A DNA stretch of 64,000 bases from Fibrobacteria bacterium (GTDB lineage Bacteria > Fibrobacterota > Fibrobacteria > UBA11236 > JADFYW01). The stretch covers positions 625,564 to 689,563 of the forward strand of contig OZ253440.1 in assembly GCA_965261055.1 (NCBI GenBank), read 5' to 3'. A program made the position numbers and the translations under genes. This document shows, in pieces, positions 13,153 to 23,290 of this stretch; position 1 is the first letter of the stretch, and every line of letters starts with the position of its first letter. Under the pieces are notes generated by a model. The model worked only from the letters and a program-made list of their open reading frames with translations. It did not search any database and was not told the DNA's origin.

Positions 13153-14721
13153 ATGGGTGAAGAACAAAAACAACAACTAGAACAGCAACTGTGGAATATT
13201 GCTGATACCCTTAGGGGAAAAATGAATGCCGATGAGTTTAGAGATTATATATTGGGTTTTATTTTCTTTAAGTATCTATCAGAAAAAATGCACCTATATG
13301 CCAATGAAGAATTACAAAACGACAATATTTTATATAAAGATATAAATGAAAATACTTTTGAGGGTAAAGAATATTTAAAAGCAATTAGCGAAGGATCATT
13401 AAGTAAATTGGGTTATTTTTTAAAGCCTTCAGAATTATTTTCTAATGTATCAGCTAAGGGAAATTCATTAGCAGGGGGCGATACATTTATTCTTCAAGAT
13501 TTAGCGACTATCCTTAAAAATATTGAACAAAGTACACTAGGAACTGAAAGCGAAGATGACTTTGGTAATTTATTTGAAGATTTAGACCTTACCTCAACGA
13601 AGCTAGGTAAAACAGATGAGCAAAGAAATGTTATTATTTCAAAGGTATTAGCTCATTTGGATAAGATAGATTTTCAGTTAGAAAACATTGAGCTTGATGT
13701 ATTAGGAGATGCTTATGAATACCTAATTTCACAATTTGCAAGCGGTGCAGGTAAAAAGGCAGGAGAGTTTTACACTCCTCAAGAAGTCTCTAAAATTTTA
13801 GCCAAAATAGTGACCACAGGAAAAAGTAAATTAAAAAATGTATATGATCCTACTTGTGGTTCAGGTTCTTTACTCTTGCGTGTTGCCAAAGAGGTTAAAG
13901 ATGTTTCGGCTTTTTATGGTCAGGAGATGAACCGAACGACTTACAATTTAGCACGAATGAATATGATACTTCATGATGTGCATTATAAGAAATTTGATAT
14001 AAAACAAGAAGATACTTTGGAGCGTCCTCAACATATTGATGAGCGTTTTGAAGCTATTGTCGCCAATCCTCCTTTTAGTGCCAAATGGAGTGCGAATCCT
14101 TTACATATGAGTGATGATCGTTTTAGCCAATATGGTAAATTAGCTCCCAAGAGTAAAGCCGATTATGCCTTTTTACAGCATATGATACATCAATTAGCAG
14201 AAAATGGTACTATGGGGATTGTATTGCCTCACGGGGCTTTGTTTAGAGGAGCCGCTGAAGGACATATAAGAAAGTATCTCATTGAGGATAGAAACTATTT
14301 AGATACGGTGATTGGTTTACCTGCTAATGTATTTTATGGAACAAGTATTCCTACTTGTATTTTGGTGTTTAAAAAGTGTAGAGAACACAGTGATAATATC
14401 TTATTCATTGATGCTTCTGGACATTATGAAAAAGTACAAACTCAAAATGTATTAAGAGAAAAACATATAGATAAAATTGTAAACACTTATCGAAATAGGA
14501 CGACCGAAGACAAGTATAGCTATGTGGTATCTATGGAGGAGGTGAAAGAAAATGATTACAACCTCAACATTCCGAGATATGTAGATACTTTTGAAGAAGA
14601 ACAGCCTATTGATTTGGAGGCAGTGAGTAATGAGTTGCAATCTTTAGAAAGTGATATTGTTAAGACCGATAAAACCATTGTAAATTTTTGTAAAGAACTC
14701 AATATTAAAACTCCGTTTTAA
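13153..14721 (+). CDS. hsdM: Type I restriction-modification system DNA N6-adenine methyltransferase subunit M
   Basis: 522 aa with an HsdM N-terminal domain, a SAM motif I DPTCGSGSLL and a catalytic motif IV ANPPFS. Confidence 0.95.
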   Translation: MGEEQKQQLEQQLWNIADTLRGKMNADEFRDYILGFIFFKYLSEKMHLYANEELQNDNILYKDINENTFEGKEYLKAISEGSLSKLGYFLKPSELFSNVSAKGNSLAGGDTFILQDLATILKNIEQSTLGTESEDDFGNLFEDLDLTSTKLGKTDEQRNVIISKVLAHLDKIDFQLENIELDVLGDAYEYLISQFASGAGKKAGEFYTPQEVSKILAKIVTTGKSKLKNVYDPTCGSGSLLLRVAKEVKDVSAFYGQEMNRTTYNLARMNMILHDVHYKKFDIKQEDTLERPQHIDERFEAIVANPPFSAKWSANPLHMSDDRFSQYGKLAPKSKADYAFLQHMIHQLAENGTMGIVLPHGALFRGAAEGHIRKYLIEDRNYLDTVIGLPANVFYGTSIPTCILVFKKCREHSDNILFIDASGHYEKVQTQNVLREKHIDKIVNTYRNRTTEDKYSYVVSMEEVKENDYNLNIPRYVDTFEEEQPIDLEAVSNELQSLESDIVKTDKTIVNFCKELNIKTPF

Positions 14722-15825
14722 ATGATGAATGTTAAGTATCATAACAATCAATTTCCACCTAAAATTCAGTTAGATGATGAAATTCATAAATTGATTAATC
14801 AAGCGAGAACAGAGTTAGGAAGATACGATGGTTTTTTATCTTCTATGGTTAATAGTCAAGTATTACTCTCTCCATTATTTACACAAGAAGCTGTTTTGTC
14901 TTCAAAAATAGAGGGGACACAGTCTACTTTAACTGAAGTTTTAGAATTTGAAGCTTATGAAGGAAAACAAAATATAACAGAAGCAAAAAGAAATGATATA
15001 AGAGAAGTTCTAAATTACCGTTATGCCTTAAATACTGCCGTTGAATTATTAAAAACCCTCCCTTTGTCTAAAAGAGTGTTTTTAGCTTGTCATAAAGAAC
15101 TAATGAAAAATGCTAGAGGGAAAAATAAAGTCCCTGACGAATATCGAAAAACGCCCGTATGGATTGGAGGGTCTTCTTTTGAATCTGCTCGGTTTATACC
15201 TATTGATGCTAATAAAATTCCTCAAGCAATGAGTGATTTTGAAAAATACCTCCATAATTCAGATGAGTATGATGATTTAATAAAAATAGCTATTTTACAT
15301 GCAGAATTTGAAGCGATTCATCCATTTTTAGACGGAAATGGAAGATTAGGAAGACTATTAATTCCTTTGTATTTATGGAAAAAAGATTTACTAAGCAGTC
15401 AATCATTTTATATGAGTACTTATTTTGAAAATGATCGAGATTCTTATTATGATGGATTATTAGATGTCTCTAAAAACGAGAATTGGTTAGATTGGTGTAA
15501 ATATTTTTTAAAAGGAGTTATTAGTCAATCTAAACAAAATTTAAATCGAGCAAGAAAAATCACACAACTTTATAATGATTTAAAAATCAAAATTCCTACA
15601 CTCACCAAATCTCAATATGGGATTACGGCATTAGACTTTATCTTTAAGGTTAATTATTTTAAGTCTACTACCTTTTATGAAAGGTCTAAAATTCCTAAAC
15701 CTACTGCAAGAAGATTATTAAAGACTTTAGTAGAAAAAGAAATTTTACAGTATACACCCGGCAGTGGTAGAATCCCTAATTTTTACATATTTAAACAATT
15801 GATAGATATGGCAGATGGAAAATAG
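14722..15825 (+). CDS. fic: Fic-family AMPylase (class II, with an N-terminal inhibitory helix)
   Basis: 367 aa with the canonical FIC motif HPFLDGNGRLGR (HxFx[D/E]GNGRxxR). An upstream SxxxEG inhibitory motif (SSKIEG) is present. The start codon abuts the hsdM stop (TAAATG). Confidence 0.9.
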   Translation: MMNVKYHNNQFPPKIQLDDEIHKLINQARTELGRYDGFLSSMVNSQVLLSPLFTQEAVLSSKIEGTQSTLTEVLEFEAYEGKQNITEAKRNDIREVLNYRYALNTAVELLKTLPLSKRVFLACHKELMKNARGKNKVPDEYRKTPVWIGGSSFESARFIPIDANKIPQAMSDFEKYLHNSDEYDDLIKIAILHAEFEAIHPFLDGNGRLGRLLIPLYLWKKDLLSSQSFYMSTYFENDRDSYYDGLLDVSKNENWLDWCKYFLKGVISQSKQNLNRARKITQLYNDLKIKIPTLTKSQYGITALDFIFKVNYFKSTTFYERSKIPKPTARRLLKTLVEKEILQYTPGSGRIPNFYIFKQLIDMADGK

Positions 15826-15903
15826 TTTTGTGGCTCACTTATGTAACACAAAATAGTTTGTGGCTCACTTATGTAACACAAAATAGTTTGTGGCTCACTT
15901 ATA
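15826..15903. repeat. Tandem direct repeat, ~30-bp unit x 2.6 (TTTGTGGCTCACTTATGTAACACAAAATAG), beginning at the fic stop codon and ending 6 nt before the hepT ATG
   Basis: Three head-to-tail copies are read directly (unit 1 has one extra T, and the third copy is truncated after ...CACTTATA). Each full unit contains the ATG-TAA start-stop pair. Confidence 0.9.
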
Positions 15904-15909
15904 GGAATT

Positions 15910-16326
15910 ATGAATGAAGAAAAATTAGATTTATCAGTTTTTGAAAAAGCAATAGTATCATTGAAAAGAGCATTAGATGAGTATCAAAAAGATGAACAGA
16001 ATGAGTTTATCCGTGATTCTTGTATTCAGCGGTTTGAATATTGTTATGAGTCCGCTAAAAAAATATTAATGAGACATTTTAAAAATACTGAAGATGATCC
16101 TACCAGCTTTGATGAGATGAAATTTGAGGAGATAATAAGATTAGGAGCTAAAAAAGCTTTGTTACGACATAGTTGGGATATATGGAATAATTATAGAGAA
16201 AACCGAAATAAAACTTTTCATAGCTATGATGAAACTATTGCCATAGAAATTGTGGAACAAATACCAAAATTTTATACCGAAGTAGACCATTTATTAGATA
16301 AACTCAAGGGATATTATGAAACTTGA
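15910..16326 (+). CDS. hepT: HepT-like HEPN-domain RNase toxin (type VII TA toxin family)
   Basis: 138 aa with the HEPN Rx4HxY motif (RNKTFHSY) near the C-terminus. Its stop overlaps the start of the downstream MNT ORF by 11 nt (ATGAAACTTGA). Confidence 0.85.
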   Translation: MNEEKLDLSVFEKAIVSLKRALDEYQKDEQNEFIRDSCIQRFEYCYESAKKILMRHFKNTEDDPTSFDEMKFEEIIRLGAKKALLRHSWDIWNNYRENRNKTFHSYDETIAIEIVEQIPKFYTEVDHLLDKLKGYYET

Positions 16327-17329
16327 TTTTGACATCAATAAAGAACAGTTTGCTATTGTTCAAAATGTTTTAGAACAACATTTGCCTGTAGATTGTAAAG
16401 TTTGGATATTTGGTAGTCGTGCCAAAAATACCGCTCAAGATTATTCTGATTTGGATTTAGCCTTAGAAGGCAAGGAAAAAATAGATAAAGCAATCATTTC
16501 ACAATTAAAAGAAGCATTTGAAGGTTCGCTATTACCTTATACAGTAGATATTTTAGATTTGAATGATATATCAAATGAATTTAAAACAATCATAGATCAA
16601 CAAAAAATCTTATTCTCAATAGAAGAAAATAAAGCAATATCTAAGTTGAGGTTTAAAAATGAGAACGGCAATGACTATCCCGATTGGCAAGAGAAAAAGT
16701 TGGGGGAGGTTTTTCATTCAAAGAAAGGTAGCGGTCTATCAAAAAAAAATATAGTTAGTGATGGAAAATATAAATGTATACTATATGGTACATTATTTAC
16801 AAAATATGATGAAATTATTGATGAGGTAATAGACAGTACAAATGAAGAAGGTAAGGTTAAATCTCAAATTGGAGATTTACTAGTTCCCACATCAACGACA
16901 ACAACAGGAATTGATTTGGCTAACTTTACAGCATTAAATAAAGAAGGGGTATTATTAAGTGGGGATATTACTATTTTAAAATTTAATAAAAAAGGTGATA
17001 ATGTTTATTGGGCATACTATTTAACACATTATAAGAAATATGAACTTGCAAGATATGCTCAGGGAACAACAATAGTACATATATATTTTTCTCATTTTAA
17101 AAAAACTCAAATTGAAGAGCCTTCTCTCCCCGAACAAAAAAAGATAGCGAACTTTCTTTGTTCTGTAGATGAAAAGATTGAGAAACTAACTAGGAAAAAA
17201 GAATTATTACAGGAATACAAGAAAGGTATTATGCAAAAAATCTTTTCTCAAGAATTACGCTTTAAAGATGAGAACAACAATCACTATCCCGATTGGGACG
17301 AGAAAAAGTTGGGGGGGGGTGTTGTTTGA
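16316..17329 (+). CDS. hsdS: MNT nucleotidyltransferase (HepT-cognate antitoxin domain) fused in-frame to HsdS N-terminal half (TRD1 + central conserved region); truncated by a frameshift at the G9 tract
   Basis: Residues 1-105 carry the minimal nucleotidyltransferase motif GSRAKNTAQDYSDLDLAL (GS..DxD). There is no stop before LRFKNENGNDYPDWQEKKLGEVF, the HsdS N-terminal conserved start. This is followed by TRD1 and the central conserved EQKKIANFLCSVDEKIEKL. The ORF ends DEKKLGGGVV* inside the duplicated N-conserved motif because of the G9 run. Confidence 0.85.
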   Translation: MKLDFDINKEQFAIVQNVLEQHLPVDCKVWIFGSRAKNTAQDYSDLDLALEGKEKIDKAIISQLKEAFEGSLLPYTVDILDLNDISNEFKTIIDQQKILFSIEENKAISKLRFKNENGNDYPDWQEKKLGEVFHSKKGSGLSKKNIVSDGKYKCILYGTLFTKYDEIIDEVIDSTNEEGKVKSQIGDLLVPTSTTTTGIDLANFTALNKEGVLLSGDITILKFNKKGDNVYWAYYLTHYKKYELARYAQGTTIVHIYFSHFKKTQIEEPSLPEQKKIANFLCSVDEKIEKLTRKKELLQEYKKGIMQKIFSQELRFKDENNNHYPDWDEKKLGGGVV

Positions 17330-17858
17330 ACATAAATTAAAGAGTACAGGAAAAGAAGAAGTTTATTCTGTTTCAGTACATAAAGGTTTAATTAATCAGA
17401 TAGAACATTTAGGCAGGAGCTTTTCTGCTAAAAATACTACCGATTATAGTCTTGTAAAGCCAAATGATATTGTTTATACTAAAAGTCCAACAGGTCAATT
17501 CGCTTATGGAATAATAAAACAAGCGAAAATTAATAAAGATGTAATAGTATCTCCTCTTTATGCTGTTTTTACTCCTGAATCAGAATATCTTGGATATATA
17601 TTTGACATATACTTTGAGTCAAAATATAATACTCATAATTATTTGCATTCTATTATTCAAAAGGGAGCAAAGAATACAATAAATATTACCAATACTACTT
17701 TTCTTTCAAAATCATTTAAACTTCCAATTGATTTCGCTGAACAAAAAAAGATAGCGAACTTCCTTTATTCTGTAGATGCCAAAATAGACTTGGTAAATAC
17801 CCAAAGAGAAAAAACAAAGGTTTTTAAAAAAGGACTTTTACAACAAATGTTTGTGTAA
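17268..17858 (+). CDS. hsdS: HsdS C-terminal half (TRD2 + C-terminal conserved region), in the +1 frame relative to the upstream part
   Basis: ...GGVLFEHKLKSTGKEEVYSV...(TRD2)...FAEQKKIANFLYSVDAKIDLV. The C-terminal conserved repeat duplicates the central one, as in canonical HsdS. The reading frame joins the upstream part if the G-tract is 8 rather than 9. Confidence 0.85.
   Translation: MRTTITIPIGTRKSWGGVLFEHKLKSTGKEEVYSVSVHKGLINQIEHLGRSFSAKNTTDYSLVKPNDIVYTKSPTGQFAYGIIKQAKINKDVIVSPLYAVFTPESEYLGYIFDIYFESKYNTHNYLHSIIQKGAKNTINITNTTFLSKSFKLPIDFAEQKKIANFLYSVDAKIDLVNTQREKTKVFKKGLLQQMFV
17311..17319 (+). repeat. Homopolymeric G9 tract inside hsdS at the TRD1/TRD2 boundary (candidate phase-variation switch)
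   Basis: Nine G are read directly at 17311-17319. The homologous site at the TRD1 start (16701-16708) is GGGGGAGG, an interrupted run. G8 would give KLGGVLFEH in frame with TRD2. Confidence 0.9.
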
Positions 17859-17868
17859 TTAATTATGA

Positions 17869-18924
17869 ATGCGGGAATTACGAATGATGAATGAAACAAA
17901 GAACAATAATTTTAATATACCAAGATGTGTAGATACTTTTAAAAAAGAAGCTGTAGACTTAGAAGCAGTGAGTAATGAGTTGACATTTATTGACCTATTT
18001 GCAGGAATAGGAGGTATAAAACTTGGTTTTGAAAATGCAGGTTTTCAATGTGTCTTTTCTAATGACTTTGATAAGAATTCAAAAATCACATTTGATATAA
18101 ATGTTGCTTTAGATAAGCAAATGATTCTTGGGGATATTCAAAAAATTTCTACAAACGAAATTCCTAATTTTGATATATTATGCGGAGGTTTTCCTTGTCA
18201 GCCATTTTCTGTTGCTGGCTATAGACAAGGATTTAATGATGAAAATGGCAGAGGAAATCTGTTTTTTGATATAGTAAGGATTTTGAAAAATAAAATGCCA
18301 AAAGCATTTTTATTAGAAAATGTAAAAAATCTAAAAACTCATGACAAAGGAAATACAATTAGCATCATTTACCATGAGCTACAAAAGCTAGGTTATAAAA
18401 TTACAAATAAAGTATTAAATACTATGGAATATGGTAATTTACCACAAAACAGAGAGAGAATTTATATTGTTGGTTTTTTAGAGAAAAAATCATTTAATAA
18501 TTTTGAATTTCCAAGCAAAATACCTCTGACAAAAACAATTCATGATTGCCTAGAGAATAAAGAAATTGATGATAAATATTATTACAATGATAAACCTATG
18601 TATGAAAAAATAAAAAATGATATTACTAAAAAAGATACGGTTTATCAATGGAGAAGACAGTATGTTAGAGAAAATAAAAATGGAGTTTGTCCTACATTGA
18701 CTGCAAATATGGGCACAGGAGGACATAATGTACCCTTGGTTCTGAATGGGAAAGGTATAAGAAAATTAACCCCTAGAGAATGTGCAAACTTTCAGGGCTT
18801 TCCCAAAAATTACAAATTTCCTTCTATTGCCGATTCACACCTATATAAACAATTTGGTAATTCTGTTTCTATTCCTGTAATTAATAGAATTGCTCAAAAT
18901 ATGAATTTAGCTTTAATGAAATAA
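17869..18924 (+). CDS. dcm: DNA (cytosine-5)-methyltransferase (Dcm-type, type II RM modification enzyme)
   Basis: 351 aa with motif I FAGIGG, motif IV GFPCQPFS, motif VI ENVKNL, and C-terminal QFGNSVSIPV (motif X). Confidence 0.9.
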   Translation: MRELRMMNETKNNNFNIPRCVDTFKKEAVDLEAVSNELTFIDLFAGIGGIKLGFENAGFQCVFSNDFDKNSKITFDINVALDKQMILGDIQKISTNEIPNFDILCGGFPCQPFSVAGYRQGFNDENGRGNLFFDIVRILKNKMPKAFLLENVKNLKTHDKGNTISIIYHELQKLGYKITNKVLNTMEYGNLPQNRERIYIVGFLEKKSFNNFEFPSKIPLTKTIHDCLENKEIDDKYYYNDKPMYEKIKNDITKKDTVYQWRRQYVRENKNGVCPTLTANMGTGGHNVPLVLNGKGIRKLTPRECANFQGFPKNYKFPSIADSHLYKQFGNSVSIPVINRIAQNMNLALMK

Positions 18925-18926
18925 TT

Positions 18927-20036
18927 GTGTTTTTTAATAATCAAATTGCTAAACAGAAGAAAAAATATCAATCTTTTTTAAAAATTGCTGGTTGTATATC
19001 TAATCTATTTTCTGATTCAAATATTCCCTATCTTTATTATAGAGTTGCAGAAAAAATATTTTGCCGTGCATTTGAAGCAGAAGATTTATCAAGAAGCGAT
19101 GTATCTGCTGATGCAAAGAAAAATGCTCTTGGAATAGGTTTAAAAACTTTCCTACAAGGTAATAATAAAAGTTTTCAAAAAATTGCAGAATTTAATAGCG
19201 ATAGATTATTATATGCGAATCTTGAATCAAAACAACTTGTTGCGAAAATATCAGAGTTGAGAAATAAGAGAATTGAATTTACTCGGAATACATACGAATT
19301 ACAAAATTCAATATACCATTGTATAATTAGAGATTTTGGGAAATTCAAAATCTTTGAAGAACCAATGGACAAAGTGGATATTCATAATATTCGTAATGTT
19401 AAATCCAATAAAAGTTCAATTACTTTTAATGATGAAAAAAATGAATATTCATTTTTACTTGCAAAAAGTACTCTTACAAAAAGATTTATTACGAAACCTA
19501 TTATTTATGAATTTGATGTTGAAATTCTTAAAGATCCATTACTTGAACTCAAAAATATTTTATATCAAAAAGATTTACTACTAGAAACAGAAAATAGAAT
19601 AAAGCAAACTATTTATTTACCTTTGTATGGTAGAGGTTCAACTGTATTTGAGAAAAGTGGACTAAATCAATGGAATGCAGGAGGAAGAGTAAGAGATCCA
19701 AATGAAGTTTATATTCCTATTCCAGCTGAAATTTATAAAAACTTTAAAGATTTTTTTCCCAATAGAGACACTCCATTTAATTTAAAACTTCCAAATGGAA
19801 AAATTATGCAATCTAAAATATGTCAAGATGGAGGTAAAGCTTTAATGTCTTATTCTAACAGAGAGCTTGGGCATTGGATTTTAAGAAGTATTTTAAAATT
19901 AAAAGAAGGAGAATTATTGACCTACGAAAAATTACAAGAAATAGGCATTGATTCAGTGAGTATTAATAAAATCAATAATTTAGAATTTGAGATAAATTTT
20001 ACAAAAATTGGTAGTTATGAAAAATTTATTAAATAA
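18927..20036 (+). CDS. Hypothetical protein; candidate cognate type II restriction endonuclease for the adjacent C5-MTase
   Basis: 369 aa, starting at GTG 2 nt after the dcm stop and co-directional. There is a possible PD-(D/E)xK-like segment EAEDLSRSDVSADAKK. No family is recognised with confidence. The position is classic for an R gene following M. Confidence 0.45.
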   Translation: MFFNNQIAKQKKKYQSFLKIAGCISNLFSDSNIPYLYYRVAEKIFCRAFEAEDLSRSDVSADAKKNALGIGLKTFLQGNNKSFQKIAEFNSDRLLYANLESKQLVAKISELRNKRIEFTRNTYELQNSIYHCIIRDFGKFKIFEEPMDKVDIHNIRNVKSNKSSITFNDEKNEYSFLLAKSTLTKRFITKPIIYEFDVEILKDPLLELKNILYQKDLLLETENRIKQTIYLPLYGRGSTVFEKSGLNQWNAGGRVRDPNEVYIPIPAEIYKNFKDFFPNRDTPFNLKLPNGKIMQSKICQDGGKALMSYSNRELGHWILRSILKLKEGELLTYEKLQEIGIDSVSINKINNLEFEINFTKIGSYEKFIK

Positions 20037-20133: not shown

Positions 20134-22980
20134 ATGACAACACAATCTGAACAAGCATTAGAAAATAATTTAATAGAGCAATTGCTTAAATTTGATAAAT
20201 ACAGTCGTATTAAAATCAAAGGCAAAGCTGACCTACGCGCAAATCTTAAAACACAATTAGAAAAACATAATCATGTTACTTTGTCTGATAAAGAATTTCA
20301 AAAAATTCTTCCTATCCTTAATACAGGAACCGTATTTGAAAGAGCCAAAATATTAAGAGGAATAAGACACCATATTATAAAGGATGATGGAAAGACATTT
20401 TATTTTGAATTCATCAATCAAACAGAATGGTGTAAAAATGAGTTTCAAGTTACCAATCAAGTAACTATAGAGGGTGAATATGAAAATCGTTATGATGTTA
20501 CCATTCTGATTAATGGCTTGCCATTAGTTCAAATAGAGCTTAAACGAAGAGGGTGTGAGATGGGAGAAGCACACAGGCAGATATTACGCTATAAAGATCA
20601 TTCCTTTGCTAGTGGGTCGGCTTTGTTTGAATATGTGCAGTTATTTATCATTAGCAATGGAGTAAATACCAAATATCTTGCTAATAATCGTAAAAGAGAT
20701 TTAAATTTTAAGCAAACCTTTTATTGGGCAGATGAGCAGAATAATAAAATAACCCATTTATCAGAATTTGCTAATGTATTTTTAGAGCCTTGTCATCTAT
20801 CCAAGATGATATGCAAATACATTGTACTTGCCAAAACAGATAAACTATTAATGGTATTGAGACCGTATCAATACTATGCTTGTGAAAAGCTCATAGATAG
20901 AGTTAAAAACACCGATAAGAACGGCTATATATGGCATACCACAGGTAGTGGTAAAACACTCACTTCTTTTAAGGCAAGTCAAATACTCATGCACATGCCC
21001 GAAGTACATAAAGTGGTGTTTGTAGTAGATAGAAGAGACTTGGATTATCAGACGACCAAAGAGTTCAATAATTTTTCTGAAGGTAGTGTAGATGGCACAG
21101 ACAACACCAAAGCTTTAGTAAAACAATTTGGTGATGATACTAAATTATTAGTTACTACTATTCAGAAATTAAATAATGCCATCGGCAGTCAGCGATATAC
21201 TTCTACAATGGAAACATTAAAAGATAAACGAATTGTTTTCATATTTGATGAATGCCACCGTTCCCAATTTGGGGAAACACATCAGCGTATCGTTAAATAC
21301 TTTAATAATCATCAAATGTTTGGTTTTACAGGAACACCAATATTTGCTGATAATGCTGTTAAGAATCAATTAGGTGAAAGAACAACAAAAGAGCTTTTTG
21401 GAGATTGCTTACATAAGTATGTTATCACAGATGCTATTCGTGATGAGAATGTGTTGAGTTTTTCTATTGAGTATGTAGGTAAATATACAGAAAAGAATAC
21501 AAGAAACTATATAGATATAGAAGTAGAAGCAATAGATGAGAGAGAGCTTTTTGATAATGAGGAACGCTTGAATAAAATCACAGATTATATCATTCACAAT
21601 CATGCAACTAAAACACATAGCAAACAATTCACAGCAATGTTTGCAGTTAGTGGCATTGCCACACTAATTAAGTATTATGAGCTTTTTAAAGCTAAAGAAA
21701 AAGAACACAAGTTAAAAGTTGCTACCATTTTTTCTTATTCTGCCAATGAAGAGAATGATGCTGTTGATGGTATCACATTTTTTAATGAAGAGGGTGCTAT
21801 TGAAGATACTCCAAACTCCAAACACAGTAGAGAAAAATTAGATGAGTTTATCGCTGATTACAATAAGATGTTTGGCACTAAGTTTTCTACAAAAGATAGT
21901 CAGTCCTATTACGACTATTATAATGAGATAGCTAAGCGTGTAAAGAATCGTGAAATTGATATTTTGATAGTAGTTAATATGTTTCTTACAGGTTTTGATA
22001 GTAAGCCATTAAACACGCTATATGTAGATAGAAATTTAAAACATCACGGATTAATACAAGCTTTTTCAAGAACTAACAGGATATTAAATAAGAACAAGTC
22101 TCACGGTAATATTGTATCGTTTAGAAACCTTAAGAAAGCGACAGATGAAGCGATTGCCTTATTTTCAAATAAAGATGCTAAAGAGACAATATTACTTAAA
22201 CCATATCAAAATTATTTAAGTGATTTTAATGAGGCTGTAGAGGAGTTAAAACAAATTGCTCCGACTGTAGATAGTGTCAATAATTTATTAACTGAAAGTG
22301 ACGAATTAAAGTTCGTTGAAGCATTTAGAAACTTAATGAGAATACAAAACAAACTTAGTTGTTTTGCTGATTTTTCATTTAAAGATTTACAGATGTCTGA
22401 ACAAGAATTTAAGGATTACAAGAGTAAATACTTAGATATATATGACAAAGTAAATCGCAATAATGATAAAGAAAAAGTATCTGTTTTAGACGATGTGGAT
22501 TTTGAATTAGAGCTTGTACATAAAGATGTTATTAATGTCGATTATATCATTCAGTTACTTTCTCAATTAGTTGAAGCTAAAGACAAAAACTATGAAAATC
22601 AAAAAAAACAAATCTTAGATACACTTTCAGGAGATCTTAATTTAAGAAGCAGAAAAGCATTAATTGAGCAATTTATAGAAGAAAATCTTGTAGGTATTGA
22701 AAATTCTCAAAATGTAGCCGATGAGTTTAAATCATATTGGGATAAGCAGAAAGAAAAAGCATTTAATGATTTATGTGATGAAGAGAGTTTAGATACAAGC
22801 CAAATAAAAGATATAGTAGAAGAATATTTATTTGCTAATCAAGTGCCTGATATGAGAGATAAAATAATGAAGTCTATGTTAAAAAAGGAGACGCTTTTAA
22901 TGCGTCAAAAAACTATCCCAAGAGTAAAAGATAAGATTATGAATTTTGTGAATACCTTTATTGAAGGTATGCCCGCTTGA
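20134..22980 (+). CDS. hsdR: Type I restriction enzyme endonuclease/translocase subunit R
   Basis: 948 aa with SF2 helicase motifs HTTGSGKTLTS (motif I) and DECHRSQ (motif II). It has HsdR N- and C-terminal domains and is the last gene of the co-directional RM array. Confidence 0.95.
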   Translation: MTTQSEQALENNLIEQLLKFDKYSRIKIKGKADLRANLKTQLEKHNHVTLSDKEFQKILPILNTGTVFERAKILRGIRHHIIKDDGKTFYFEFINQTEWCKNEFQVTNQVTIEGEYENRYDVTILINGLPLVQIELKRRGCEMGEAHRQILRYKDHSFASGSALFEYVQLFIISNGVNTKYLANNRKRDLNFKQTFYWADEQNNKITHLSEFANVFLEPCHLSKMICKYIVLAKTDKLLMVLRPYQYYACEKLIDRVKNTDKNGYIWHTTGSGKTLTSFKASQILMHMPEVHKVVFVVDRRDLDYQTTKEFNNFSEGSVDGTDNTKALVKQFGDDTKLLVTTIQKLNNAIGSQRYTSTMETLKDKRIVFIFDECHRSQFGETHQRIVKYFNNHQMFGFTGTPIFADNAVKNQLGERTTKELFGDCLHKYVITDAIRDENVLSFSIEYVGKYTEKNTRNYIDIEVEAIDERELFDNEERLNKITDYIIHNHATKTHSKQFTAMFAVSGIATLIKYYELFKAKEKEHKLKVATIFSYSANEENDAVDGITFFNEEGAIEDTPNSKHSREKLDEFIADYNKMFGTKFSTKDSQSYYDYYNEIAKRVKNREIDILIVVNMFLTGFDSKPLNTLYVDRNLKHHGLIQAFSRTNRILNKNKSHGNIVSFRNLKKATDEAIALFSNKDAKETILLKPYQNYLSDFNEAVEELKQIAPTVDSVNNLLTESDELKFVEAFRNLMRIQNKLSCFADFSFKDLQMSEQEFKDYKSKYLDIYDKVNRNNDKEKVSVLDDVDFELELVHKDVINVDYIIQLLSQLVEAKDKNYENQKKQILDTLSGDLNLRSRKALIEQFIEENLVGIENSQNVADEFKSYWDKQKEKAFNDLCDEESLDTSQIKDIVEEYLFANQVPDMRDKIMKSMLKKETLLMRQKTIPRVKDKIMNFVNTFIEGMPA

Positions 22981-23205: not shown

Positions 23206-23290
23206 TGCGGACGGGCGGACTTGAACCGCCATGAGAAAATTTCTCACTAGCCCCTCAAGCTAACGTGTCTACCAATTTCACCACGACCGC
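23206..23290 (-). tRNA. tRNA-Leu (anticodon GAG), long variable arm, no encoded CCA
   Basis: The reverse complement is GCGGTCGTGGTGAAATTGGTAGACACGTTAGCTTGAGGGGCTAGTGAGAAATTTTCTCATGGCGGTTCAAGTCCGCCCGTCCGCA. It has a 3-bp D-stem, an anticodon loop TTGAGGG (anticodon GAG), a variable-arm hairpin GAGAAA/TTTCTC, and a T-arm GGCGG-TTCAAGT-CCGCC. There is one U5-U68 mismatch in the acceptor stem. Confidence 0.85.

Follow-up and report, generated by a model that had tools for sequence, protein, structure and literature searches.

The closest characterized homologue of the system described here is the HEPN toxin of Legionella pneumophila, a Mg-dependent RNase with a Q44/E47 active site that is neutralized by poly-AMPylation of Y105, carried out by a short minimal nucleotidyltransferase (MNT) lacking helix α4 of MntA (PMC11586414). 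A pair of this family was found in a 64-kb stretch of contig OZ253440.1 from a Fibrobacteria bacterium, the whole of which is referred to below as the window, and there the MNT is the N-terminal domain of HsdS, the specificity subunit of a type I restriction-modification (R-M) system. The closest solved relatives of the window pair are HI0073/HI0074 of Haemophilus influenzae (1NO5 and 1JOG) and the L. pneumophila pair (8XDJ, 8XEH and 8XEO). The latter shares with the window the HEPN family and a short MNT without α4 (Foldseek template modelling (TM) score of 0.84-0.85), but consists of two free polypeptides for which no restriction context has been reported. HI0073 is the closest solved relative of the MNT, and HI0074 is among the closest for the HEPN protein, but these two also form a free-standing pair, with no fusion. 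The HepT-MntA systems of Shewanella oneidensis and Aphanizomenon (5YEP, 7AER and 7AE9) belong to the same superfamilies and share the Rx4HxY motif and the principle of tyrosine AMPylation, but their HEPN protein falls in another Pfam family, their MNT gene comes first and their MntA has the α4 helix.

A link between HEPN RNases and restriction has been described before. The HEPN census (PMC3710099) states in its text that some MNT-associated HEPN genes cluster with R-M operons, and that PrrC is held latent by the type IC enzyme EcoprrI until a phage anti-restriction peptide releases it. PrrC-EcoprrI and RloC share with the window a HEPN RNase gene inside a type I (EcoR124-like) operon and, as far as that text describes PrrC, the proposed logic is also the same, the restriction complex silencing the RNase until the complex is disturbed. 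However, PrrC is portrayed there as a large ABC-ATPase-HEPN protein that is silenced non-covalently, whereas the window HEPN is a single-domain protein of 138 amino acids (aa), whose silencing is predicted to be enzymatic (AMPylation) and to be exerted by a domain fused to HsdS or HsdR.

The order hsdM - HEPN - MNT::hsdS - (variable cargo) - hsdR turns out to be a conserved architecture in many phyla, and the fusion is widespread in sequence databases, although annotation does not recognize it. Within this class, the window copy has two extras: a poly-G tract in hsdS, and nested cargo in the form of two modules, SoFic and a type II restriction system.

MNT and HsdS in a single reading frame

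The core of the window locus consists of the following features.

15910..16326, + strand: candidate HEPN toxin of the HI0074 family, 138 aa
16316..17329, + strand: MNT::HsdS fused open reading frame (ORF), 337 aa
16316..16618, + strand: HI0073-like MNT, residues 1-101 of the fused ORF (PF18765/PF01909)
16619..16645, + strand: MNT-HsdS linker, IEENKAISK, with no stop, ATG or ribosome-binding site (RBS)
16646..17310, + strand: HsdS N-terminal conserved region, first target recognition domain (TRD1) and central conserved helix (PF01420; PADLOC Specificity_I)
17311..17319, + strand: G9 homopolymer, frameshift; G8 would be in frame
17320..17858, + strand: remainder of HsdS in the +1 frame, with TRD2 and the distal conserved region (ORF listed as 17268-17858, 196 aa; PF01420 7.2e-07)

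The HEPN protein is made of the PF08780 (NTase_sub_bind) domain alone (4.4e-29; 101.5 bits, cut-off 31.8), with no ABC-ATPase domain fused to it, and passes the NCBIfam model TIGR01987 for HI0074 (68 bits, cut-off 55.8). It matches the solved HI0074 (1JOG) at 7.6e-11, and its family profile matches the L. pneumophila toxin (8XDJ) at 2.1e-32, with Q44, E47 and Y105 of the latter aligned. The initial annotation of this DNA, made from the letters alone, had placed first a HEPN gene with the Rx4HxY motif, whose stop overlaps the start of the MNT ORF by 11 nt, and both statements were borne out: RNKTFHSY corresponds to R99-x4-H104-x-Y106, the QxxE motif (Q40/E43) is also there, E43, R99, H104 and Y106 are invariant across seven aligned sequences, and the next ORF starts at 16316. 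Its assignment of the pair to HepT-MntA (DUF86), by contrast, has to be given up in favour of the HI0074/HI0073 family. At E <= 0.01 Pfam returned only PF08780 for the window HEPN, with no PF01934 match, and the antitoxin scores 45.8 bits against the MntA equivalog NF047752, below the cut-off of 60.

In the fused ORF, Pfam places Polbeta/NTP_transf_2 at residues 17-106 and Methylase_S at residues 123-297 (PF01420, 6.3e-17), and the HsdS part is also recognized by PADLOC Specificity_I (6.3e-54). The MNT motif reads G33-S34…D45-x-D47…D78; G33, D45, D47 and D78 are invariant and S34 is nearly so over 101 sequences, fused or unfused. The similarity of this domain to HI0073 (1NO5) is high both in sequence (9.6e-20, 44% identity) and in predicted fold (Foldseek TM score 0.89, root-mean-square deviation 1.3 Å). 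An AlphaFold2 model of the 337-aa ORF, with a mean predicted local distance difference test (pLDDT) score of 85, displays two well-folded domains separated by a linker of lower confidence: pLDDT is 96-98 over residues 1-100 of the MNT and 64 in the ten-residue linker, which is followed by a TRD and then by a long central helix (residues 271-310).

The frame is open across the junction, which reads …QQKILFSIEENKAISKLRFKNENG…, and the only start-like in-frame codons in its vicinity are ATA at 16637 and TTG at 16646, with no purine-rich RBS before the TTG. An ATG does occur at 16659 but in another frame, so that the junction lacks an ATG in frame with HsdS. In the fusions found in other genomes (see below) the linkers are ~8-12 residues long, typically of the form …FPL…VPxLRF…, and Met occurs in only one of 30 aligned linkers, so that an independent start of HsdS is judged unlikely here. 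The initial annotation had described MNT and HsdS as one frame without a stop, with no internal ATG preceded by an RBS and a TTG as the sole candidate, and this description stands, the ATA being added to it and likewise lacking an RBS. Its predicted nucleotidyltransferase-HsdS chimera stands in part: MNT is joined to HsdS, but only half of HsdS is encoded in the assembled ORF, owing to the poly-G frameshift. An artefactual loss of a stop codon between the two parts was considered and rejected, the junction being conserved in dozens of divergent sequences. That the frame is kept open in dozens of proteins which are only 36-57% identical also argues that the open junction is not due to chance.

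Distribution and variants of the fusion

When the whole ORF was used as the query, four full-length Polbeta + Methylase_S proteins of 501-523 aa were retrieved (36-55% identity). With the MNT domain alone, a word-index search gave only three matches and missed known fusions, and an exhaustive phmmer search against 1.84 billion cluster representatives was used instead, which produced 4044 matches at E <= 0.001. HsdS follows the MNT in 95 of the 149 best cluster representatives among these 4044 (custom hidden Markov models (HMMs); clusters at 50% identity), and Pfam found PF01420 in 65 of the 101 nearest MNT cluster sequences scanned. Genomes were also scanned with a HEPN alignment as seed, which gave 80 loci in which ORFs were called and classified by custom HMMs, and the resulting gene-order census covers 97 HEPN genes across 85 sources. 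The gene after HEPN encodes a free MNT in 48 of the 97, MNT::HsdS in 30 (25 of these come from the 80 genome loci, which hold another 3-4 in split or truncated form, so that about 25-29 of the 80 show hsdM-HEPN-MNT::hsdS-hsdR) and MNT::HsdR in seven, plus two with a weak MNT match. It is an MNT-containing ORF of more than 150 aa in six, of which L019, L028 and L039 are the split, truncated or divergent HsdS cases just mentioned and L037, L055 and L083 are unclassified, and an hsdS without MNT in two; the remaining two, L006 (with an MNT pseudogene in the gap) and L061, have no adjacent gene of these classes.

HEPN thus directly precedes an MNT-containing ORF for 91 of the 97 HEPN genes, and MNT comes first in none. 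The gene order that the initial annotation regarded as an anomaly, i.e. reversed with respect to MNT then HepT, is therefore the rule in this family. According to the text of the HEPN census, MNT is almost always 5' (PMC3710099); this rule holds for the DUF86 HepT/MntA type but not for the HI0074 family.

Carriers of the fusion were found in Gamma-, Alpha- and Zetaproteobacteria, in Campylobacterota (Arcobacter and Sulfurimonas) and in Nitrospinales, Spirochaetia and Poriferihabitaceae, and this recurrence in many bacterial phyla makes the fusion look selected rather than accidental. Cultured carriers include Marinobacterium ramblicola D7, Marinomonas arctica 328, Alloyangia mangrovi and Rhodobacter sp. 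TJ_12. On plasmid pZMOB01 of Zymomonas mobilis ATCC 10988 the order is hsdM - HEPN - 527-aa protein - hsdR (L085/L087, 30878-32470 and 3-5154), and the 527-aa protein (WP_014466389.1) has Polbeta and Methylase_S domains according to Pfam, although its RefSeq annotation reads only 'restriction endonuclease subunit S'. The type I system of pZM32 in Z. mobilis ZM4, which has been characterized experimentally and whose HsdS is listed with two domain superfamilies and one gene number skipped (PMC8432527), was examined as a further candidate and rejected, since it has a plain 420-aa HsdS directly after hsdM and neither HEPN nor MNT.

The initial annotation knew of no precedent for the fusion. This does not hold for databases, in which at least 95 clusters at 50% identity, the RefSeq protein from pZMOB01 and a PADLOC profile contain it: in the Specificity_I profile PDLC03138 (485 positions) the first 95 positions align to the window MNT, and as this profile starts with MNT, MNT-HsdS fusions are already inside existing HsdS models. 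No paper describing the fusion was found, however. In the full-text literature searched, which does not extend to subscription journals, neither an MNT-HsdS nor an MNT-HsdR fusion is described, and an earlier mention is possible; nor is MNT-HsdS mentioned in the text of the HEPN census, figures and supplements excepted (PMC3710099). A match to HsdR/HsdS in PMC4621449 was set aside, as it consisted only of strain genotypes.

The association with HEPN does not depend on HEPN having been used as the query. Among nine fusions found via the fused ORF or the MNT domain and not via HEPN, eight have an intact PF08780 gene directly upstream, which overlaps the start of the fusion in seven and lies 11 nt upstream of it in L094. 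The ninth, L093 (3764-3910), has an intact MNT::HsdS and a HEPN reduced to a 48-aa C-terminal remnant, consistent with loss of the toxin. HsdR may also bear the MNT, at its N-terminus, in proteins of 1045-1282 aa that have a HEPN gene of their own. Such HsdR fusions were found in L013 and L028 and in the following loci, the coordinates being those of HEPN + MNT::HsdR.

L001, 9536-13129
L003, 2426-6168
L009, 8652-12190
L017, 7923-12178
L022, 8143-12388
L026, 8426-12137
L091, 6529-10117

Several operons carry both an MNT::HsdS and a second HEPN with MNT::HsdR, and this second HEPN is ~25% identical to the first. The minimal form of the architecture is seen in L090, which is made of hsdM-HEPN-MNT::hsdS-hsdR and nothing else, while other relatives have cargo between hsdS and hsdR (DUF3800, Abi_2, DUF559 or Schlafen-AlbA_2) or, as with a Bro-N protein in L092, in the slot between hsdM and HEPN that SoFic occupies in the window.

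The G9 tract and the neighbouring genes

In the NgoAV system of Neisseria gonorrhoeae, hsdS1 ends in a poly-G tract that yields a truncated yet functional HsdS whose target is symmetric; when one G is lost, hsdS1 and hsdS2 are joined and specificity changes (PMC9577141). The window resembles NgoAV in the position of its poly-G tract, where the first hsdS half ends, and in that loss of one G would join the halves, but NgoAV has neither MNT nor HEPN, and tract variation has been demonstrated there whereas it is deduced from one sequence in the window. The fused ORF stops prematurely at 17329 because of the G9 run at 17311-17319, and as assembled there is one TRD per ORF. When one G is removed, the product is a 513-aa MNT-HsdS with the canonical ending KKGLLQQMFV, which matches fused homologues of 488-523 aa from its first residue to its last, and the repair alignment reveals no further defects in TRD2. 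The tract is the sole G/C run longer than 7 in the 64-kb window, whose GC content is 31%; shuffled sequences would lead one to expect 0.03 such runs. Its place is the boundary between TRD1 and TRD2, where it falls within a 70-nt internal HsdS repeat, namely the second copy, the first copy reading GGGGGAGG at that point. The direct repeats of hsdS (16652-16721 vs 17261-17330, 83%; 17127-17245 vs 17734-17852, 71%), with a period of ~608 nt, correspond to the conserved regions of HsdS.

By analogy with NgoAV, the G9 tract probably makes hsdS phase-variable. This is read from one assembly, the exact window proteins being singletons in the sequence collection, and in a single assembly phase variation, fixed truncation and a consensus error look alike; we regard it as quite possible, short of probable, that the truncation is an artefact or a sign of decay, i.e. 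either a homopolymer miscall, the true gene then being the 513-aa fusion, or a fixed frameshift that inactivates hsdS. The source appears to be a genome from an uncultured lineage, on a 1.6-Mb contig (its best Pgk match is 66% identical, and the hits that bear names are MAGs of Fibrobacterota, Spirochaetia and Leptospiraceae), and hsdS or hsdR genes are split in several related loci from metagenome-assembled genomes (MAGs). Against this, 27 A/T runs of >=8 nt lie within long intact ORFs of the window, so that general miscalling of homopolymers is not evident, and the rarity of the tract, its location at the same boundary as the phase-variable tract of NgoAV (PMC9577141) and the otherwise undamaged TRD2 point the same way. 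In the G8 state a full-length MNT-HsdS would be produced, and in the G9 state a protein consisting of MNT, TRD1 and the central helix. The latter resembles the functional half-HsdS of NgoAV, and as a dimer of such halves it may have another specificity, for a symmetric target. Since MNT is upstream of the tract, the antitoxin would be encoded in both states.

The second TRD of HsdS proteins from Flavobacteriaceae shares 71-74% identity with TRD1, a relationship that points to shuffling of TRDs across phyla. An HsdS from Tenacibaculum maritimum (P0041, 564 aa), a close relative of the window TRD, has an N-terminal GIY-YIG nuclease domain (PF01541) in place of the MNT, i.e. a different N-terminal addition to HsdS.

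Taken as a whole, the locus is a type I (IC-like) R-M operon that holds a predicted HI0074/HI0073-family HEPN/MNT toxin-antitoxin module, and every gene between 13153 and 22980 is on the + strand. The neighbouring features are the following.

13153..14721, + strand: hsdM, type I N6-adenine methyltransferase subunit (PF02384 3.7e-114; PF12161)
14722..15825, + strand: SoFic-type Fic/DOC protein, cargo between hsdM and the HEPN gene (PADLOC SoFic 1.2e-110; Fic_N, Fic)
15819..15902: 30-bp tandem repeat, 2.8 perfect copies of TTTGTGGCTCACTTATGTAACACAAAATAG (Tandem Repeats Finder score 159)
17869-18924, + strand: Dcm-type C5 methyltransferase (PF00145 5.7e-94; PADLOC MTase_II)
18927-20036, + strand: NgoFVII-like endonuclease with a B3-like domain (PF20731; PADLOC REase_II)
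20134..22980, + strand: hsdR with an EcoR124_C terminal domain, type IC-like (PF12008 3.1e-67)
23206..23290, - strand: tRNA gene flanking the island (Rfam tRNA, 47.3 bits)

A complete type II R-M pair (17869..20036) is thus nested as cargo between hsdS and hsdR. In the window hsdR, HSDR_N begins at residue 4, which leaves no MNT fused to this subunit. Most relatives are without SoFic, their HEPN gene lying directly 3' of hsdM. The 30-bp tandem repeat spans the stop codon of the Fic gene and runs into the RBS and start of the HEPN gene, and no further copy exists in the window; each unit contains a short inverted repeat, TTTGTG…CACAAA. The tandem repeat may serve as an operator or as part of a promoter, or it may be the scar of an insertion. 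A scan of the window for sigma-70 promoters gave 60 hits for 58.9 expected from shuffles, i.e. no excess, and terminator-like sites in the window are few and on the - strand only. Two such minus-strand hairpins adjoin the tRNA gene, which lies ~225 nt past the end of hsdR and at which the defence island may have integrated.

Proposed tethering of an antitoxin to the restriction complex

The reading towards which we lean, by a modest degree, is that of a type VII-like toxin-antitoxin system in which the antitoxin, an adenylyltransferase, is anchored in the type I restriction complex, so that control of the RNase would be coupled to that complex. By homology with the L. pneumophila pair, HEPN would be an RNase toxin and the MNT domain would silence it by AMPylating Tyr106. 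Because the antitoxin is inside HsdS (and HsdR in relatives), neutralization would depend on the restriction complex, be it on its presence, its stoichiometry or its conformation, and the RNase would be kept in check only as long as an intact complex, or an intact gene for it, is there. If hsdS were lost, or if phage anti-restriction factors attacked the complex, the RNase would be freed and would then bring about abortive infection or post-segregational killing, in a manner analogous to PrrC-EcoprrI. That toxin neutralization may be tied to the R-M complex had been proposed in the initial annotation, and the idea gains weight from the recurrent MNT::HsdS and the paralogous MNT::HsdR fusions.

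A more elaborate version, which can be put forward only tentatively, assigns to the type I complex the roles of antitoxin scaffold and sensor. The MNT in HsdS/HsdR would keep HEPN AMPylated while the complex is intact, phage DNA mimics or Stp-like peptides, or loss of the complex, would release the RNase, and the poly-G tract would switch specificity with the antitoxin retained. A guard role with abortive infection and an addiction role are two plausible and non-exclusive consequences of such coupling. The doubled module with HEPN and MNT::HsdR seems to fit a guard role more readily, while carriage on plasmids and the HEPN remnant of L093 fit an addiction role.

Several observations weigh against a coupling of this kind. 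The covalent linkage is not obligatory, because MNT and hsdS are separate in L025, where MNT ends with TAA and the ATG of hsdS comes two bases later, and on a plasmid of Acetobacter ascendens LMG 1591 (L088), where the gene set is the same and the two are separately annotated genes 12 nt apart. In two Methylococcaceae MAGs (L008, 6001-7624; L013, 2324-3971), HEPN is followed, with the same 11-nt overlap, by an ordinary HsdS that has no MNT and begins MKNNMDNIKKVPVLRFPEF…, which is hard to reconcile with a HEPN that is always toxic. About half of the family pairs (48 of 97) are free-standing and not linked to restriction genes. Repeated fusion, which favours the reading, is suggested by a neighbour-joining tree of concatenated HEPN and MNT that is rough and without support values: besides one large clade of HsdS fusions it shows two or three small clades of them nested within free pairs, with the HsdR fusions apart, and thus suggests several independent fusion events (three to four HsdS fusion clades plus a separate HsdR clade). 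As for the G9 tract, which comes from what appears to be a MAG of an uncultured lineage, it may be due to an error of sequencing or to a fixed mutation that inactivates the gene. Finally, toxicity, AMPylation, complex formation and triggering in the fused systems are all argued by analogy.

Among the alternatives, a pure addiction or stabilization device, in which the antitoxin within hsdS makes loss or rearrangement of a dispensable type I system lethal and no phage is sensed, fares best, although we consider it doubtful as a full explanation. Several carriers are plasmids (pZMOB01 of Z. mobilis and Acetobacter plasmids), the window island adjoins a tRNA gene and holds nested cargo, the MNT, being upstream of the variable TRDs and the poly-G tract, would survive variation of hsdS, and L093, with its decayed HEPN and intact MNT::hsdS, is as expected if the toxin decays first. 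However, many carriers are chromosomal, and the second HEPN with an MNT fused to HsdR in the same operons is left unexplained. Such a device is in any case compatible with a guard and does not exclude it. Production of HsdS as a separate polypeptide, whether translation starts internally at TTG 16646 or ATA 16637 or the linker is cut by a protease, would leave the fusion without physical consequence and is improbable. There is an in-frame TTG at the usual HsdS start, confidence of the model is lower in the linker, and relatives with separate MNT and hsdS genes indicate that such a state is viable, but the junction has neither RBS nor ATG, 29 of the 30 fusion linkers lack Met and the frame stays open at 36-57% identity in several lineages. 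Least probable of all is that HEPN/MNT is no toxin-antitoxin pair but a two-subunit nucleotidyltransferase that modifies a restriction subunit, DNA or RNA, e.g. to regulate restriction. In its favour, HI0074 was first read as the substrate-binding subunit of HI0073 (PDB entry titles; background in the text of PMC3710099), the MNT catalytic residues are invariant and the HEPN + hsdS loci without MNT (L008 and L013) suggest that HEPN is not always lethal, but the closest characterized homologue is an RNase toxin neutralized by AMPylation (PMC11586414), the RNase-type residues and the acceptor Tyr are invariant and about half of the family consists of free-standing mobile pairs, typical of toxin-antitoxin modules.

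If a toxin-antitoxin pair is indeed coupled to the type I complex in this way, an antitoxin hard-wired into HsdS or HsdR would provide restriction with a simple and widespread RNase-based back-up, abortive or addictive in nature. As the fusions are annotated simply as HsdS and the MNT is part of at least one HsdS profile in PADLOC, this toxin-antitoxin layer is invisible to the current annotation of defence systems. The idea of a PrrC-type 'guarded restriction system' becomes testable in many organisms, including Z. mobilis ATCC 10988, Marinomonas arctica and Marinobacterium ramblicola, and, should the complex also act as a sensor, a covalently wired and enzymatic guard similar to PrrC-EcoprrI would exist across many bacterial phyla.

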